A DNA stretch of 46,405 bases, taken from the IMG/VR virus record IMGVR_UViG_2563366912_000002; one strand, given 5' to 3'. The translations under genes and the position numbers were made by a program. Source of the stretch: a virus (Duplodnaviria; Heunggongvirae; Uroviricota; Caudoviricetes). The notes beneath the pieces were generated by a model. It worked only from the letters and a program-made list of their open reading frames with translations, was not told where the DNA came from and made no database searches. Positions 648-11,489 of this stretch are shown here, one piece after another (position 1 is the first letter of the stretch; the number at the start of each line of letters is the position of its first letter).

Positions 648-3124
<2,477 letters not shown>

Positions 3125-3920: not shown

Positions 3921-3944
3921 ATAAAAAAGGAGCCTGTAGCTCCC
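3921..3944 (-). terminator. Rho-independent terminator-like hairpin within the leftward operon
   Basis: Minus strand reads GGAGCTACAGGCTCC followed by TTTTTTATT; lies between ORF 3966..4247 and ORF 3649..3867. Confidence 0.4.
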
Positions 3945-3965
3945 TGATGATTTTGCTTTTCATGT

Positions 3966-5281: not shown

Positions 5282-6063
5282 GCTGCCACCTTCTGCTCAG
5301 TGGCTTTCTGTTTCAGGAATCCAAGAGCTTTCACTGCTTCGGCCTGTGTCAGTTCTGACGATGCGCGAATGTCGCGGCGAAATATCTGGGAACAGAGCGG
5401 CAATAAGTCGTCATCCCATGTTTTATCCAGGGCGATCAGCAGAGTGTTAATCTCCTGCATGGTTTCATCGTTAACCGGAGTGATGTCGCGTTCTGGCTGA
5501 CGTTCTGCAGTGTATGCAGTATTTTCGACAATGCGCTCGGCTTCATCCTTGTCATAGATACCAGCAAATCCGAAGGCCAGACGGGCACACTGAATCATGG
5601 CTTTATGCCGTAACATCCGTTTGGGATGCGACTGCCACGGCCCCGTGATTTCTCTGCCTTCGCGAGTTTTGAATGGTTCGCGGCGGCATTCATCCATCCA
5701 TTCGGTAACGCAGATCGGATGATTACGGTCCTTGCGGTAAATCCGGCATGTACAGGATTCATTGTCCTGCTCAAAGTCCATGCCATCAAACTGCTGGTTT
5801 TCATTGATGATGCGGGACCAGCCATCAACGCCCACCACCGGAACGATGCCGTTCTGCTTATCAGGGAAGGCGTAAATTTCTTTCGTCCACGGATTAAGGC
5901 CGTACTGGTTGGCGACGATCAACAATGCGATGAACTGCGCATCGCTGGCATCACCTTTAAATGCCGTCTGGCGAAGAGTGGTGATCAGTTCCTGTGGGTC
6001 GACAGAATCCATGCCGACACGTTCAGCCAGCTTCCCTGCCAGCGTTGCGAGTGCTGTACTCAT
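5278..6063 (-). CDS. bet: Lambda Bet (Red-beta) single-strand annealing protein, 261 aa
   Basis: Near-identical to lambda Bet as recalled ([66 protein letters not shown]…). Confidence 0.95.
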
Positions 6064-6068
6064 CCGTT

Positions 6069-6365
6069 TTATACCTCTGAATCAATATCAACCTGGTGGT
6101 GAGCAATGGTTTCAACCATGTACCGGATGTGTTCTGCCATGCGCTCCTGAAACTCAACATCGTCATCAAACGCACGGGTAATGGCTTTTTTGCTGGCCCC
6201 GTGGCGTTGCAAATGATCGATGCATAGCGATTCAAACAGGTGCTGGGGCAGGCCTTTTTCCATGTCGTCTGCCAGTTCTGCCTCTTTCTCTTCACGGGCG
6301 ATCTGCTGGTAGTGACGCGCCCAGCTCTGAGCCTCAAGACGATCCTGAATGTAATAAGCGTTCAT
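6069..6365 (-). CDS. gam: Gam, RecBCD inhibitor (98-aa short form)
   Basis: [60 protein letters not shown]… matches lambda Gam; an in-frame TAA 19 codons upstream prevents the long form. Confidence 0.9.
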
Positions 6366-6440
6366 GGCTGACCTCCTGAAAATGGCTGTGAAAATATCGC
6401 CCGCGAAATGCCAGGCTGATTAGGAAAACAGGAAAGGGGA

Positions 6441-6731
6441 TTAGTGATTCAGGCCGTTACCGCGTCCGTCGAGAAAAACTTCCACGAGCAAATCACGGGT
6501 ATAAGTGCGCTCGATGCCGCGATGCAGATAAAGTCGTCCGCGTAAATTAGCTGATGCAGTCCAGGTACCATCTTTGCGTTTGACCAGCATTCCTGGCATG
6601 ACCGCACCGCGATTAACGGTTTGCGTTCCGTAATGTTGATGAACCATAAAAACTCCTGCCCGTAAGCTGGGCTGCTGAACATATAAAGACTTCTGCGCGT
6701 ATTCAGGCGGTGGATGGCCGCCGGTTGTCAT
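6441..6731 (-). CDS. Hypothetical protein, first long ORF downstream of the putative PL (kil/N position)
   Basis: 96-aa ORF between the immunity region and gam; no Arg-rich motif of its own, but see the finding on the in-frame upstream Arg-rich mini-ORF. Confidence 0.5.
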
Positions 6732-6924
6732 AACTAAGCCGCCTCGTTGAAGCGACTAAGGTATGAAATGTTGAGTTGATTTCAGCTGGTCACACCGACG
6801 TTCACGCGTCCGTTTCATCCCTCGCACTCCCCGAAGCCTGCTGAAATTCAAGCTGCGGATCTAAGCGGTCATCGCAACGGTGAATCAGGTGGTTGCCGTA
6901 TCGTTGTGTTGTTGCGATATGGTG

Positions 6925-6953
6925 ATAATAGCTATTGCTATTGGTGATATCAA
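6925..6953 (-). promoter_or_regulatory. Candidate leftward early promoter (PL-like) with operator-type repeats
   Basis: Minus strand reads TTGATA-17 nt-TATTAT; the spacer contains CAATAGCAATAGC repeats that recur in the cI-cro intergenic region. Confidence 0.4.
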
Positions 6954-7095
6954 TACTTATTGGTATTAATTGATGTGTTTTGATATTAAATGTTTGATAG
7001 CAAAAAGAATTAATTTTGTGACTTGCATCGCATAGCGATAACTGAAGCGAGGTTGTGGTGGTTTTTTGAACGGTATACGTGATGAGGGGAGGGGA

Positions 7096-7123
7096 CAAAA
7101 GAAAACCCGGCACGGTGGCCGGG
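7096..7123 (-). terminator. Rho-independent terminator downstream of the cI-orf153-stk operon
   Basis: Minus strand CCCGGCCACCGTGCCGGG hairpin followed by TTTTCTTTTGT. Confidence 0.55.
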
Positions 7124-7290
7124 CTAGATCTTAAAGTATTTATCTTTTAGAGATGTAGATGCAAAATTTTTTGCCTTTGAAAATTTTTTGTCATCAGAAG
7201 AGCTTATGAACTCATCTTTTTTGTAGGGAACCGCTAATGCTGCATCACGTCTGCGAGGCAGCTTACTTACTTCCTCGCACTTTTTCATGA

Positions 7291-8337
7291 TCAGTTATCC
7301 TTTAATAACCTATACAGTTTTGTAGGGGTACATCCTGAGGATATTGTTAAGTTCGTAGCACGCCTTTTCCGCCCACCATCGTATAAACGAAAACCAGTAG
7401 TAGACGAATTTTCTGCGTCAAAAACTATAGACAGTATAACGTCCCCAGACTTTTTTTGCCATTCATATGTGCCGTTAGTTGGTTTTGTCATCTGTAGACG
7501 CCAGTCAAGAACGCCATCACTTATAGCTGAGAGATCGTTTAGTACGTCTAGTACGGATTGATATCTTTCATTTGGATCTACATGAATGCATTTGTTTACT
7601 ATTGTTATCAATTTTTTATGTATGTGGGAAGGATACTCTTTTAATGGATAGGAGCCATTAATTATCGACTCTCTGAGTTGTTCAATCGTTCTAAATGCAG
7701 ATCTTTCTCTTTCAAAATTATCATATCCAACACACATTCTATATATGGTTAATCCTGCCTGATATATGTCATATGTGAAATTATAATCATTTGTTGATAA
7801 AGAAAAATATTCCGGTGGCACATGAAAATGATATCCAAACTCAGGCGCAGCTCTCGATTCCTCATTGACTAACTGAGACAATCCAAAGTCAGATAGCATG
7901 GCCTCATTTCTGTTTGATATCATGATGTTATTAGGTTTTATATCAAAATGCATAAGACCTTTTGAGTGTATATGATAAAGCCCACTTAAAAATTGAATAG
8001 AATACCGTATTATCTCCCTGCTCGTAAGATTAATCTTTTTTATTAATTGGTTTAGCGAACCATTATGATAAAATGGCATGGCTATATAGATATTGCTCTC
8101 ACATTGAGCAGCATACTGAACTTGCACAATATTTGGATGTGCATGTTTATAGAGAAGCCTTGCTTCATTAAAGTAGTCGTCGTGGTTAGTGTTTTCTTTT
8201 TTTTCTATTTCTTTAATCACCAAGTCATGAGCTAGGTGTCTGTCATGAGCCAGATATACTTTTGAAAAACAACCCTGTTCTTCTAGATCACGAATCCATT
8301 CGAATGCTACATCAGCTCTTTTGTATGGAGTCAGCAT
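7291..8337 (-). CDS. stk: Eukaryotic-like (Hanks-type) protein kinase, 348 aa, Stk-like
   Basis: Catalytic loop HFDIKPNNIM, DFG motif SDFGLS, beta3 lysine in VIKEIEKK; SD GGAGGT 8 nt upstream; start overlaps upstream ORF stop; AT-rich. Confidence 0.85.
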   Translation of the reverse strand: MLTPYKRADVAFEWIRDLEEQGCFSKVYLAHDRHLAHDLVIKEIEKKENTNHDDYFNEARLLYKHAHPNIVQVQYAAQCESNIYIAMPFYHNGSLNQLIKKINLTSREIIRYSIQFLSGLYHIHSKGLMHFDIKPNNIMISNRNEAMLSDFGLSQLVNEESRAAPEFGYHFHVPPEYFSLSTNDYNFTYDIYQAGLTIYRMCVGYDNFERERSAFRTIEQLRESIINGSYPLKEYPSHIHKKLITIVNKCIHVDPNERYQSVLDVLNDLSAISDGVLDWRLQMTKPTNGTYEWQKKSGDVILSIVFDAENSSTTGFRLYDGGRKRRATNLTISSGCTPTKLYRLLKDN

Positions 8338-8792
8338 CCCCTTACCTCCGCAGATAGTGCAGCCAAAACAGCTTCATTTGTTTCAGTTGTAAAACCAGAA
8401 TTATCGATTCCATTTATATTACGGTGTGACTTCAATATTTCTTTATACTCGATCTCTGTTAGGTTCAATGATGACTTCATACCAGATTTTCTAATGGTGT
8501 AATATCTTCTTACATCACTGCTTGAAAATGCTTCTTGAATAACAGCTTCTATATAAAGGCGGTCAATGCTAAGATTATCAGAGTTTGATTCAGTAACGCG
8601 TATAGCAGCTAATTCAACATTATATAAATTAAGAATGTCGAGGATGTTATTTCGCACATACTTTAATTTTTCTGGTGTGTCTAAGGTCGAAGGTATTTTA
8701 ATAACATCAACACATTTGAGTGCAGACTCATCAGTGCAATATACAACAAAAGATGTAACTTTGGGCGCCGCCCTAACACCTAGTATTCTCAT
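8331..8792 (-). CDS. Hypothetical protein (153 aa) between cI and the kinase
   Basis: Stop overlaps the kinase start (translational coupling); AT-rich like the kinase; no recognisable domain. Confidence 0.6.
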   Translation of the reverse strand: MRILGVRAAPKVTSFVVYCTDESALKCVDVIKIPSTLDTPEKLKYVRNNILDILNLYNVELAAIRVTESNSDNLSIDRLYIEAVIQEAFSSSDVRRYYTIRKSGMKSSLNLTEIEYKEILKSHRNINGIDNSGFTTETNEAVLAALSAEVRGC

Positions 8793-8872
8793 TTTTTATA
8801 TCCCATTTTAGAATCAGGCTGCGTTTCTGCAGCCTCTCTCATCACCCAAATGTCTAATCAGGCTATTATTGA

Positions 8873-9565
8873 TTATCCATGTTTCCTGTATGTTTGCGGC
8901 ATGCTCCCAATAACTTTCCCGAAGATAAACACCCGGTTCATCTCGTCTTTCTCGATTGGGTCCCACGGCGAGTAGCTCTTGTTATCAGAGATAACCAGCA
9001 GCTTATCCTTCATCATTTGAAGACGTTTTACATGGGCAGTGTCGTCGTACAGAAACGCATAGATGCCATCACCGTCGAAAGATTTAACAGTGATATCAAC
9101 GAACAGCAGATCACCTGGTTCGATCGTCCCTGACATGCTGTCACCGCGCACGTTAATAATGCGGATATTTTCCGCCTTCCTGCCATCGAACATGTGACGA
9201 GCATCGTCAAACGAGTACTCAACCGAGCGTAGAACTTCCACAAACTCACGGTTGATGACACCCGGTCCGGCACTGACTTCTATATCAAGAACGTCAATCT
9301 TGAAGTATTTTGAATGGCTGACAGCAGGCTTCCCTGATTGTTGACCGTCATTTCTCATCGGGCCTATGCCTGATGAGAGCCATTCTGTTCGAACACCCAA
9401 TGCATTAGCTATTTCAACAATTTTTGTTGAGCCGCGCGCGTTGCCGCTTGTCAGTCTCCAGATTGTGGGTTGAGCTACGCCAGACGCCTTTGCAAGAGCG
9501 CCTTGAGACATTCCAGATTGTTCCATCGCTAGGTTTAAGCGATCAGCAAGAGTTTCTTTTTTCAT
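8873..9565 (-). CDS. cI: CI-type prophage repressor, HTH_XRE N-domain plus S24 (LexA-like) autopeptidase C-domain
   Basis: HTH SQGALAKASGVAQPTIWRL; S24 motifs GDSMSGTIEPGDLLFVD and HVKRL; ATG at 9563..9565 sits ~7 nt after a TAAATT -10, so the mRNA is nearly leaderless as for lambda PRM. Confidence 0.85.
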   Translation of the reverse strand: MKKETLADRLNLAMEQSGMSQGALAKASGVAQPTIWRLTSGNARGSTKIVEIANALGVRTEWLSSGIGPMRNDGQQSGKPAVSHSKYFKIDVLDIEVSAGPGVINREFVEVLRSVEYSFDDARHMFDGRKAENIRIINVRGDSMSGTIEPGDLLFVDITVKSFDGDGIYAFLYDDTAHVKRLQMMKDKLLVISDNKSYSPWDPIEKDEMNRVFIFGKVIGSMPQTYRKHG

Positions 9566-9675
9566 AAGTTTTAATTTATACGCTTGCGTATTGATGGTCA
9601 AAACACGTTTTGCTATTGCTTGGATTAATACGCATTGCTATTATTCATTCATTGCAATACCAATAGGAATTGATA
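9566..9675. promoter_or_regulatory. Divergent immunity promoters and operators (OR/PRM/PR-like)
   Basis: Rightward TTGCTT(9616..9621)-17-TATTAT(9639..9644); leftward (minus) TTGACC(9596..9601)-17-TAAATT(9573..9578); palindrome ATACGCttGCGTAT at 9581..9594 and repeated TTGCTATTG / CAATAG elements. Confidence 0.5.
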
Positions 9676-9903
9676 ATGACAAATCAAACCATTCAACTCG
9701 CAATCAGTATTACAGGTAGTCAAAAACGACTGGCAGATCTATGCGGTGTAGCCCAACCCACAGTTTGGCGTTGGCTACACGGTGGCGGAATTGATGCCCG
9801 CTATGTAATGAAAATTGTCTCAGCCACTGGTGGAAAGATTAAACCAGCAGATATTCGTCCCGACCTCGCACCATTGTTTAACGCGAGTAATTCTGCCGCC
9901 TAA
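9676..9903 (+). CDS. cro: Cro-like HTH regulator (YdaS-type)
   Basis: HTH QKRLADLCGVAQPTVWRWLHGG; SD AGGA 7 nt upstream of ATG 9676; divergent from cI. Confidence 0.75.
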   Translation: MTNQTIQLAISITGSQKRLADLCGVAQPTVWRWLHGGGIDARYVMKIVSATGGKIKPADIRPDLAPLFNASNSAA

Positions 9904-9927
9904 ACTGCGGCGTTAACTGATAAGGCA

Positions 9928-10473
9928 ATGACTATGCAACCACTTACATACCAACAGACTAGCGGATTTAGCCCGACTGCGGTGATAAATCGTTCTCAAA
10001 CAAAACAGGCGCCAGGCCACGAAAAAATCCGTGATGCCGTTCGCGCCTGGTCGGCTGCAGATAATCAGGATGTTGTTGCCGCACTCATTGTGAATGAGTA
10101 TCGGGAGCAGGGCGGCGGCACCATCGATTTCCCTGATGATGTCAGCCGTGCACGCCAGAAGCTGTTCCGCTTCCTCGATAACAAATTCGATTCTGAAAAA
10201 TACCGAAATAACGTGCGTGAACTGACCCCGGCAATTCTGGCGGTACTACCGCTGGAATATCGCGGCCACCTGGTTGAGCAGGATAGCTACATGGCTCGGC
10301 TGGCTGAAATGGAAAAGGAACTCAGTGAGGCAAAACAGGCTGTCATTCTCAACGCACCACGCCACCAGAAACTGAAGGAGATGAGTGAAGGCATTGTGTC
10401 GATGTTTCGTGTGGACCCGGATTTGGCTGGTCCACTGATGGCGATGGTCACCACCATGCTGGGGGCAATATGA
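9928..10473 (+). CDS. YdaT-family protein (181 aa) in the cII position
   Basis: Occupies the cro-O interval where lambda has cII; sequence type recalled as YdaT-like (Rac ydaS-ydaT arrangement). Confidence 0.55.
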   Translation: MTMQPLTYQQTSGFSPTAVINRSQTKQAPGHEKIRDAVRAWSAADNQDVVAALIVNEYREQGGGTIDFPDDVSRARQKLFRFLDNKFDSEKYRNNVRELTPAILAVLPLEYRGHLVEQDSYMARLAEMEKELSEAKQAVILNAPRHQKLKEMSEGIVSMFRVDPDLAGPLMAMVTTMLGAI

Positions 10474-10559
10474 CAGGTTCGGAAATGGCGAAAGCCGGTC
10501 TGCGCGAACAGAACCGACTTTCAGGTGCAAATCGTAACACACTCATTGCGGGAGGAATT

Positions 10560-11489
10560 ATGGCAAACACTGCTGAGATATTCAATTTTCCAGTGCCGGA
10601 TGTGGCACAAAAGGAGCGGCGCGTGGCAGATCTCGACGATGGTTATACGCGCATTGCAAATGAGTTGCTGGAAGCTGTGATGCTGGCCGGATTAACACAG
10701 CACCAGCTTCTGGTCTTCCTGGCTGTCATGCGCAAAACATATGGCTTTAATAAAAGACTGGATTGGGTGAGCAACGAGCAACTTTCCGAATTGACCGGGA
10801 TATTGCCGCACAAGTGTTCTGCTGCAAAAAGCGTTCTGGTAAAGCGTGGGATTCTTATTCAGAGCGGGCGAAATATCGGCATTAATAATGTGGTCAGTGA
10901 ATGGTCAACATTACCCGAATCAGGTAAGAAAAATAAAGTTTACCTGAAAGAGGTAAATTTACCTGAATCAGGTAAGAAAAGTTTACCCAAATCAGGTAAA
11001 GGCGTTTACCCGAATCAGGTAAACACAAAAGACAAACTAACAAAAGACAATATAAAACCTTTTTCGTCCGAGAATTCTGGCGAATCCTCTGACCAGCCAG
11101 AAAACGACCTTCCTGTGGTGAAACCGGATGCTGCAATTCAGAGTGGCAGCAAGTGGGGGACAGCAGAAGACCTGACCGCCGCAGAGTGGATGTTTGACAT
11201 GGTGAAGACCATCGCGCCCTCAGCCAGAAAACCGAATTTTGCAGGGTGGGCTAACGATATCCGCCTGATGCGTGAACGTGACGGACGTAACCACCGCGAC
11301 ATGTGCGTGCTGTTCCGCTGGGCATGCCAGGACAACTTCTGGTCCGGTAACGTGCTGAGTCCGGCCAAACTCCGCGACAAGTGGACCCAACTCGAAATCA
11401 ACCGTAACAAGCAACAGGCTGGCGTGACAACCGGAAAATCAAAACTCGACCTGACAAACACTGACTGGATTTACGGGGTGGATTTATGA
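10560..11489 (+). CDS. O: Replication initiator O (lambda O-like N-terminal iteron-binding domain)
   Basis: MANTAEIFNFPVP…RRVADLDDGYTRIANELLEA…LAVMRKTYGFNK aligns with the lambda O N-terminus; SD GGAGG 4-5 nt upstream of ATG 10560; iterons inside the gene. Confidence 0.85.
   Translation: MANTAEIFNFPVPDVAQKERRVADLDDGYTRIANELLEAVMLAGLTQHQLLVFLAVMRKTYGFNKRLDWVSNEQLSELTGILPHKCSAAKSVLVKRGILIQSGRNIGINNVVSEWSTLPESGKKNKVYLKEVNLPESGKKSLPKSGKGVYPNQVNTKDKLTKDNIKPFSSENSGESSDQPENDLPVVKPDAAIQSGSKWGTAEDLTAAEWMFDMVKTIAPSARKPNFAGWANDIRLMRERDGRNHRDMCVLFRWACQDNFWSGNVLSPAKLRDKWTQLEINRNKQQAGVTTGKSKLDLTNTDWIYGVDL
10911..11066 (+). repeat. Origin of replication: four to five 18-19-bp iterons (TTTACCYGAATCAGGTAAR) followed by an AT-rich segment
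   Basis: Copies at ~10911, 10958, 10982 and 11004 plus a degenerate copy at ~10939; each is internally palindromic; followed by ACAAAAGACAAACTAACAAAAGACAATATAAAACC. Confidence 0.7.

Follow-up and report, generated by a model that had tools for sequence, protein, structure and literature searches.

The early-left locus of the prophage analyzed here is an ordinary arrangement of PL, leader and kil in an N-less lambdoid prophage, and the split N gene that had been proposed for it is not real. The initial annotation, made from the sequence, described an Arg-rich mini-ORF (ATG 6818), a TAG (6756..6758), eight further codons and an in-frame 96-aa ORF (6441..6731), all of which are correct as sequence facts, and read them as a possible N-like antiterminator with an arginine-rich motif (ARM) in first position and an amber mutation behind it. 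That reading does not hold: the 96-aa ORF clearly carries a Kil domain, relatives do not conserve the mini-ORF as a unit, neither N similarity nor a nut element was found, and the TAG is polymorphic among relatives. We have considerable confidence that the locus consists of PL and OL, a leader of about 270 nt without a functional translation product, and the 68-aa kil gene of an N-less lambdoid prophage. This leader is very probably untranslated, and the mini-ORF, the TAG and the in-frame 96-aa ORF follow one another by coincidence, in frames of an RNA that does not code. Had there been a split, suppressor-dependent N gene, it would have made a notable variation on a textbook system, but the locus has none.

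Prophage setting, PL and the 5' half of the leader

The window (the whole stretch of DNA analyzed, 46,405 nt) is identical to the DNA around the argU tRNA gene of E. coli UR21/11-869 (NZ_OU342919.1). It is a DLP12-type lambdoid prophage at argU and a member of an N-less lambdoid family, related to phages Perceval, 4A7, and PhiR68_2. The early region is 96-100% identical to that of sequenced phages, including PhiR68_2, PhiR70_1, Perceval, 4A7, and Lambda_4C10, and the structural genes in the window's prophage copy are partly pseudogenes. Leftward, the gene order runs from cI (8873-9601) through a RuvC-like gene, a Ser/Thr kinase gene (stk), and a 54-aa ORF to an intrinsic terminator, then through the AT-rich OL/PL region, the leader interval with kil, gam, bet, and exo, and finally to homologues of orf60a/63/61, a DksA/TraR-like gene, xis, and int. 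The terminator closes the immunity transcript (cI, RuvC-like gene, stk, 54-aa ORF) just upstream of OL/PL, and a homologous region in 933W carries an annotated terminator as its counterpart. The features of the locus are the following:

7104..7125, minus strand: intrinsic terminator from the terminator scan, with an 8-bp stem (6 GC pairs) and a T-rich tail
6927..6967, unstranded: OL operator-like palindromes AATAGCAATAGCTATT (6927-6942) and AATACCAATAAGTATT (6952-6967), from the repeat comparison
6925..6953, minus strand: PL, a sigma-70 promoter with -35 TTGATA, a 17-nt spacer and -10 TATTAT, from the promoter scan
6771..6918, minus strand: 5' half of the PL leader (about 150 nt), specific to the family and taken as non-coding from the genome survey, the distant search and the folds
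6756..6818, minus strand: Arg-rich mini-ORF from ATG 6818 to TAG 6756-6758, judged to be a chance ORF in the leader
6648..6765, minus strand: conserved structured leader module, from homology with phi80, HK225, and HK639, containing the TAG and ATG 6731
6730..6764, minus strand: hairpin 1 of the module, 35 nt, from covariation
6706..6722, minus strand: hairpin 2 of the module (GGCGG-CCAUCCA-CCGCC), kept in divergent copies
6441..6647, minus strand: kil, 68 aa, from profile matches, the starts of homologues and PGAP

The PL candidate proposed from the sequence is confirmed. It matches the consensus at 10 of 12 positions and is the top minus-strand promoter-like site in the scan. The two palindromes have the form AATAS-N6-STATT and overlap the -10/spacer and the -35 of PL, respectively, and relatives of both lie between cI and cro at 9573-9675 (repeat families D1, I3, I4, I18, and I19). 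Heteroimmune relatives have a quite different PL/OL (TTGACG-17-TTAAAT with AAAACAAC-type operators), and the homology of their leader starts exactly at ATCGCAAC, window position 6918, which is 7 nt past the -10. The PL call is well supported because the overlapping palindromes recur between cI and cro and because the heteroimmune homology begins at 6918; the transcription start (+1) would accordingly lie at about A6918. Since the homology begins exactly there, the conserved unit appears to be the transcript from about +1.

The first 150 nt of this transcript are peculiar to the family. A search of the phage collection confined the segment to 16 phages of one family, with no distant homologues found, and within E. 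coli it occurs at ≥95% identity in 2210 of 5426 complete genomes (about 41%). PGAP placed no feature over it in 39 of the 40 genome matches listed. Its strong conservation and its start exactly at +1 argue for some function. The predicted folds comprise a 5'-terminal stem of AUCGCAAC (6911-6918) with GUUGCGAU (6871-6878) and a hairpin at 6830-6859. The fold of the whole leader is no more stable than those of shuffled sequences (z = 0.08), and in these models only the local hairpins can be taken as meaningful. A permissive Rfam scan of 5500-11000 (E up to 10) returned chance matches only, and a literature search found no paper describing the PL leader. We also considered a Rho loading site and rejected it: the leader has a mild C>G bias over its first 60 nt only, is not strongly C-rich and G-poor, and shows no clear rut signature.

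The 5' segment also contains a CA-rich stretch, CAACAACACAAC (6903-6914, leader nt 5-16), located mostly in the loop of the predicted 5'-terminal stem. It is a perfect 12-nt complement of GUUGUGUUGUUG in the R1 seed of GcvB (MG1655 sequence), and neither strand of the 46-kb window has another 12-mer complementary to GcvB R1. Duplex-energy scans against GcvB gave no discrimination, and only the exact 12-mer complement is unusual. The match was noticed post hoc, and we regard it as a lead, not as a finding. EHEC prophages encode a GcvB mimic, AgvB, a 51-60-nt Hfq-bound sRNA downstream of PR' (PMC4104026). The likeness lies in a prophage transcript with a GcvB R1 target motif near its 5' end (CACAACA in AgvB, CAACAACACAAC in the window leader). 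AgvB is, however, an sRNA downstream of PR', whereas the motif of the window lies in a PL mRNA leader and its interaction with GcvB is putative.

The structured leader module and kil

The 3' part of the leader is a structured module that the window shares with many other phages. Its elements are, in order, CAUAC, hairpin 1, UUAUGACAA, hairpin 2, GAAGUCUU..GUUC, a small hairpin, and the SD of kil. A distant-mode search found the 3' part of the leader (6706-6768) to be common to phi80, HK225, HK639, and Enterobacter and Klebsiella phages. An IMG/VR scan with a conserved 26-mer located the module in at least 120 viral contig stretches, and 86 distinct IMG/VR contexts were aligned with it. The window copy has all defining elements: a 14-pair hairpin that covaries and leaves one position unpaired, UUAUGA, a hairpin with a CYAUCCA loop, and GARGUCUU..GUUC before the next gene. 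The surroundings of the module differ between phages. In phi80 it comes after the N gene and the tL1A terminator, and in HK639 and HK225 after a terminator that itself lies behind other early genes. Outside the window's family, it is immediately preceded by a GC-rich hairpin and a T-run in most contexts, and by a put RNA in some. The order in the window is PL, 150 nt, module, and kil, with no intervening terminator.

Hairpin 1 was evaluated in an ungapped same-length alignment with explicit pair counts. Over 28 distinct sequences, pairing is kept in 96.7% of the cells, with compensatory changes at five pairs, and the hairpin reaches a covariation score of 0.323, compared to 0.134 for shuffles (0/500 reach the observed score) and 0.03-0.08 for slid controls. 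The T of the TAG (T6758) is position 7 of this hairpin and the single unpaired base in its lower stem. Among the 26 distinct sequences of that length class, the position is occupied by C in 21, by A in four, and by T in one. The TAG is thus a C-to-T variant at the unpaired base of hairpin 1. A6731 and T6730 of ATG 6731 take part in the basal pairs, and a GAGG is found in the 3' arm.

The conserved element of the module is RNA and not protein, because the GAAGUCUU motif lies in differing reading frames across phages and because divergent copies keep the pairing of hairpin 2 and its CYAUCCA loop with the peptide altered or the ATG missing. For the latter reason a polyproline leader peptide (MTTGGHPPP...EVLY*) was rejected as the conserved feature; the frame of this small ORF is kept in five of nine module length classes and often ends in EVLY*. 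The equivalent of hairpin 2 in HK639 is annotated only as a predicted terminator. Since hairpin 1 sequesters GAGG and AUG, the module probably tunes the downstream message, through control of either its translation or its stability. No Rfam family matches the module, and as far as Rfam and the literature could be searched, it is undescribed.

The gene that follows the module is kil. The 96-aa ORF (ATG 6731 to 6441) matches PHROG 294 (Kil, septation inhibitor) with an E-value of 1.4e-37 over residues 20-96 (profile positions 4-80 of 83), which bears out a further option of the initial annotation, namely a coincidence in which the 96-aa ORF is kil-like. PF27398 is assigned to nearly all database homologues of the ORF; our own Pfam search, run with a copy of Pfam without PF27398, gave no Kil match. 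NCBIfam NF008465 (KilR) aligns over model positions 1-70 of 73 with residues 29-96 (E 3.7e-16). Its 58.9 bits are below the curated subfamily cut-off of 92, and the product is therefore a KilR relative, not an equivalog. All distant homologues share a block that starts from MVHQHYG (MVHQHYGTQ), and their N-terminal extensions are mutually unrelated. PGAP annotates the 68-aa form, and an SD (AGGAG, 6653-6657) is located 5 nt upstream of ATG 6647.

The 96-aa ORF is an over-extension of the 68-aa kil gene, and ATG 6731 with the next 28 codons is non-coding module sequence, open into kil by chance in the window's family. By homology, the product is a Kil protein of the KilR/phi80-type FtsZ-inhibitor family with its start at ATG 6647; judging from the family annotation, it would inhibit cell division. 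The 68-aa product matches the family of KilR (Rac) and phi80 Kil end to end, and gam, bet, and exo come after its gene, just as kil adjoins gam-bet-exo in the early-left operons of phi80, HK225, and KO-TP1. Unlike KilR and phi80 kil, the gene is separated from PL by no other gene, and its product does not belong to the lambda Kil family (47 aa in the RefSeq annotation).

Alleles of the mini-ORF

The mini-ORF begins at ATG 6818, encodes MKRTRERRCDQLKSTQHFIP, and ends at the TAG (6758..6756), eight in-frame codons before ATG 6731. A plausible SD (GGGGAG, 6827-6832) lies 8 nt upstream of its start. That it shares a frame with the 96-aa ORF is a 1-in-3 event and not above chance. We surveyed the alleles of 79 near-identical leaders, all with at least 95% identity, of which 73 could be classified and six were left unclassified. 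ATG with TAG was found in 23 leaders, GTG with TAG in 18, GTG with CAG and a frame open through into kil in about 28, GGG in place of the start codon in one, and a frameshift (5-nt duplication or 1-nt deletion) in four. By start codon, 23 leaders have ATG, about 49 have GTG, and one has GGG, so that a single one of the 73 classified leaders lacks an ATG or GTG. In some relatives, 5-nt and 1-nt indels break the frame of the mini-ORF and the 96-aa ORF, and the end point varies among near-identical leaders between 20 aa, 29 aa, and a fusion through to kil.

The initial annotation had advised a check of whether the TAG is a sense codon in relatives. About 32 of the 73 classified leaders have CAG at the stop position and 41 have TAG, and the TAG allele occurs in plaque-forming PhiR68_2. 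The window allele (TAG and ATG) is 100% identical in PhiR68_2 and PhiR70_1, and PhiR68.2 has been used in plaquing assays (bioRxiv 10.1101/2025.11.03.685801). Perceval carries the CAG allele with an open 136-aa ORF. Both alleles are common and each is present in at least one sequenced phage, which is a poor fit with an essential N-like gene. The mini-ORF peptide has no homologue outside its own phage family in a tblastn search of 50,697 phage records and matches no family profile. Differences among the leaders, counted by eye, amount to about four synonymous and six to seven non-synonymous changes, which at ≥95% identity is hardly enough to tell whether the 5' 150 nt are under coding or non-coding selection. 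The mini-ORF is presumably not translated, although, given its start codons and the GGGGAG, some translation may occur.

Such translation might have a function of its own if the mini-ORF were a uORF modulating Rho-dependent polarity, the folding of the module, or kil expression, with the sequence of the peptide being unimportant. The SD-like GGGGAG and the near-constant ATG/GTG would suit this reading, as would the end of the frame inside hairpin 1, since a ribosome that terminates there would melt the stem in which GAGG and AUG 6731 are sequestered. We nevertheless consider it unlikely. A tuned mechanism is unlikely to tolerate an ORF whose length and end point vary this widely, one variant has GGG for its start codon, the leader has no clear rut signature, and a PGAP gene over the 5' leader is absent in 39 of the 40 matches listed.

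Absence of known early antitermination systems

The statement in the initial annotation that no N gene is recognizable is borne out. No early-region ORF matches an N family, and QuuD is the only antiterminator in the RefSeq annotation of the same DNA. The profile searches that had been advised for the 96-aa and the fused translations identified Kil but no N family: neither the mini-ORF, nor the 57-aa upstream part, nor the 125-aa fusion has an N match in Pfam, PHROG, or NCBIfam. BLASTP against lambda N gave an E-value of 6.2 on an unrelated 7-mer and did not report the likeness between RTRERR and RRRERR. In a tblastn search of the 50,697 phage records, the fused translation matched nothing beyond its own family, and phi80 N bears no resemblance to the mini-ORF or the fusion by eye. 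The boxA and boxB elements of a nut site, expected in the leader under the N reading, were searched for without success. Positions 6648-6920 contain no boxA within one mismatch of CGCTCTTA or three mismatches of YGCTCTTTAACA, and the predicted leader hairpins have loops of 8 or 3 nt, unlike the boxB hairpin. There is no second leader copy either, as no segment of the leader is repeated in the window (including the PR operon) or in the full PhiR70_1 genome.

In lambdoid phages without N, the usual suspicion falls on put RNA, as stated for phage LLS (PMC12315714). We built a put covariance model from 16 diverse put sequences. The model scored the putL elements of HK639 and HK022, which belong to the seed family, at 95.6 and 95.5 bits, respectively, and the unseeded putR of HK022 at 37.3 bits (E 1e-7). 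With filters switched off and E-values of up to 10 admitted, it detected no put RNA in window positions 6648-6920. Some put phages have putL between PL and the same module, i.e., at the position of the 150-nt segment of the window, and HK022/HK639-type put phages and the window's family are alike in having no N. The window differs from them in a leader that the put model does not match and in the absence of a second copy in the PR operon.

By these searches, the prophage family is without N/nut and without put, both known early antitermination systems. Sites resembling intrinsic terminators are nevertheless retained: the PL operon has one at 3927-3945, and PhiR70_1 has another behind the emrE moron that lies between P and Q. 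The early terminators of the family may be weak, or the distal genes may be served by other promoters; an unrecognized antitermination device may also be encoded nearby. A bolder proposal is that the PL leader is itself a regulatory device replacing N, acting in cis on RNA polymerase or on the host via the GcvB complement, with the module as a new class of cis-regulatory RNA for early-left genes; we give this only a small chance of being correct.

Comparison with phi80 points to a possible origin of the 5' half of the leader. The early-left region of phi80 is organized as PL, nutL, N, tL1A, an unannotated spacer, and kil, and the spacer (L005 2504-2640) is homologous to window 6648-6765, including the covarying hairpin and UUAUGACAACCGGCGGCCAUCCACCG. 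Upstream of the module, however, phi80 has a boxA-containing leader, a 98-aa N, and tL1A, where the window has an unrelated 150-nt segment. The two orders, together with the ARM-like string that begins the mini-ORF, could be explained by a deletion of most of N and tL1 that joined the start of N to the module, leaving the 150 nt as a relic of an ancestral nutL-N. This is quite improbable. Nothing similar to the 150 nt or its peptide was found outside the family at the DNA or protein level in the phage collection, the ORF has no boxA- or boxB-like element ahead of it, and about 41% of complete E. coli genomes keep the segment at ≥95% identity, which is more in keeping with a functional leader than with a remnant in decay.

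An N-like antiterminator of about 126 aa (ARM, linker, and C-terminal domain), split by an amber codon in a defective prophage or dependent on suppression or read-through, is scarcely credible. In its favor, RTRERR resembles the RRRERR of lambda N by eye, the ORF occupies the position expected for N directly behind PL, and Perceval with its CAG has the frame open over 136 aa. Against it, the C-terminal 68 aa are Kil with homologues that begin at MVHQHYG, similarity to lambda N or any N family is absent together with boxA and a nut repeat, and TAG and CAG are both common next to frameshift variants, with the TAG allele present in plaque-forming PhiR68_2. In addition, the T of the TAG is left unpaired in a hairpin whose module other phages carry behind terminators. 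The locus resembles lambda N/nutL in its map position directly downstream of PL/OL and in having an ORF that opens with an Arg-rich string, and differs from it in having no N homology, boxA, boxB, nutR counterpart, or conserved ORF, and in Kil as the downstream domain.

As a PL-leader-kil arrangement, the locus would operate as follows. Upon inactivation of the repressor, RNA polymerase would start at about A6918 and transcribe the family-specific 150-nt segment, in which the Arg-rich 20-codon frame would be open by chance. It would then transcribe the 120-nt structured module, which many lambdoid phages have between the first early-left terminator and the next gene. Ribosomes would initiate at AGGAG-ATG 6647 to produce the 68-aa Kil, a predicted inhibitor of FtsZ ring formation, and transcription would run on into gam, bet, and exo.

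For annotation, this means that the pattern of mini-ORF and 96-aa ORF does not merit entry as a gene, and that phage records with "Kil" proteins of 96-139 aa extending over the leader are over-extended. Many lambdoid phages have in common, after tL1, a structured module with clear covariation and without an Rfam family. Beyond this, a very common E. coli prophage family, which includes plaque-forming phages, appears to manage without N/nut and put with intrinsic terminators kept in its early operons.

Structured module in the PL leader

The 3' part of the PL leader, the RNA that runs from about position 6918 to the kil start codon at 6647, forms a structured module that we also located in three lambdoid phages:

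6648-6765, minus strand: leader module (~120 nt) with a covarying hairpin and conserved motifs
phi80 (L005), 2504-2640: module copy
HK639 (L004), 2479-2610: module copy
HK225 (L006), 2481-2640: module copy

From 5' to 3', the module consists of the covarying hairpin, UUAUGACAA, a hairpin with the loop CYAUCCA, and GAAGUCUU..GUUC. In many lambdoid phages it is located directly 3' of the first early-left terminator or of putL, the put antiterminator RNA of the PL operon. The module matches no Rfam family, and its sole existing annotation is a predicted ‘terminator’ in HK639. Kil is annotated as a protein of 139 aa in Perceval and 96 aa in PhiR70_1; both annotations extend across non-coding leader.

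Terminators and put RNAs

The early operons contain terminator-like hairpins, yet the phage family has neither N/nut nor put. The following hairpins, each followed by a T-run, lie inside early operons:

3927-3945, minus strand: intrinsic terminator-like hairpin (window)
PhiR70_1 (L311), ~10922-10957, plus strand: intrinsic terminator-like hairpin
PhiR70_1, ~2030-2060, minus strand: intrinsic terminator-like hairpin
PhiR70_1, ~1375-1403, minus strand: intrinsic terminator-like hairpin

One terminator-like hairpin is found 3' of the emrE moron, between P/ren and Q. An Rfam scan confined to part of the window gave no put-like match there. HK022/HK639-type put RNAs are very common among viral contigs (IMG/VR loci L091, L094, L098, L106 and about 80 more); the scan gave at least 120 stretches, and stem II covaries clearly across at least six outer-stem classes.

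Immunity region and state of the prophage

7124-8792, minus strand: RuvC-like gene, Ser/Thr kinase gene and 54-aa ORF, between cI and PL
9458-9481 and 9745-9768: 24-nt inverted repeat (83% complementary) linking cI to cro

The cI-PL position, occupied by rexAB in lambda, instead carries a RuvC-like gene (PHROG 3875), a eukaryotic-type Ser/Thr kinase (Pkinase, E 1e-46) and a 54-aa ORF (PHROG 4063). Stx phage 933W is 95% identical over the searched part of this block, 7098-7300 (terminator, 54-aa ORF and 3' end of stk). Between cI and PL, Perceval and PhiR70_1 have unrelated genes. From opposite strands, cI and cro encode near-identical helix-turn-helix peptides (GVAQPTIWR and GVAQPTVWR, respectively). 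The prophage copy in the window (1-46405) is defective: its genes for terminase, protease, major capsid, tail L and tail fibre are pseudogenes. Its morons are emrE, a porin, iss and lom, and a copy of ISEc1 lies at its flank.

GcvB complementarity of the PL transcript

6903-6914, minus strand: CAACAACACAAC (PL transcript nt 5-16), complementary to the R1 seed of GcvB at all 12 positions

No other 12-mer in the window complements R1 in this way, and this one is present in 31 of the 33 distinct leader variants; the O157-type variant, in which the first 36 nt differ, lacks it. The 12-mer may act as a target or sponge for GcvB, for which AgvB, the GcvB-mimicking anti-sRNA of EHEC prophages, may offer a parallel.
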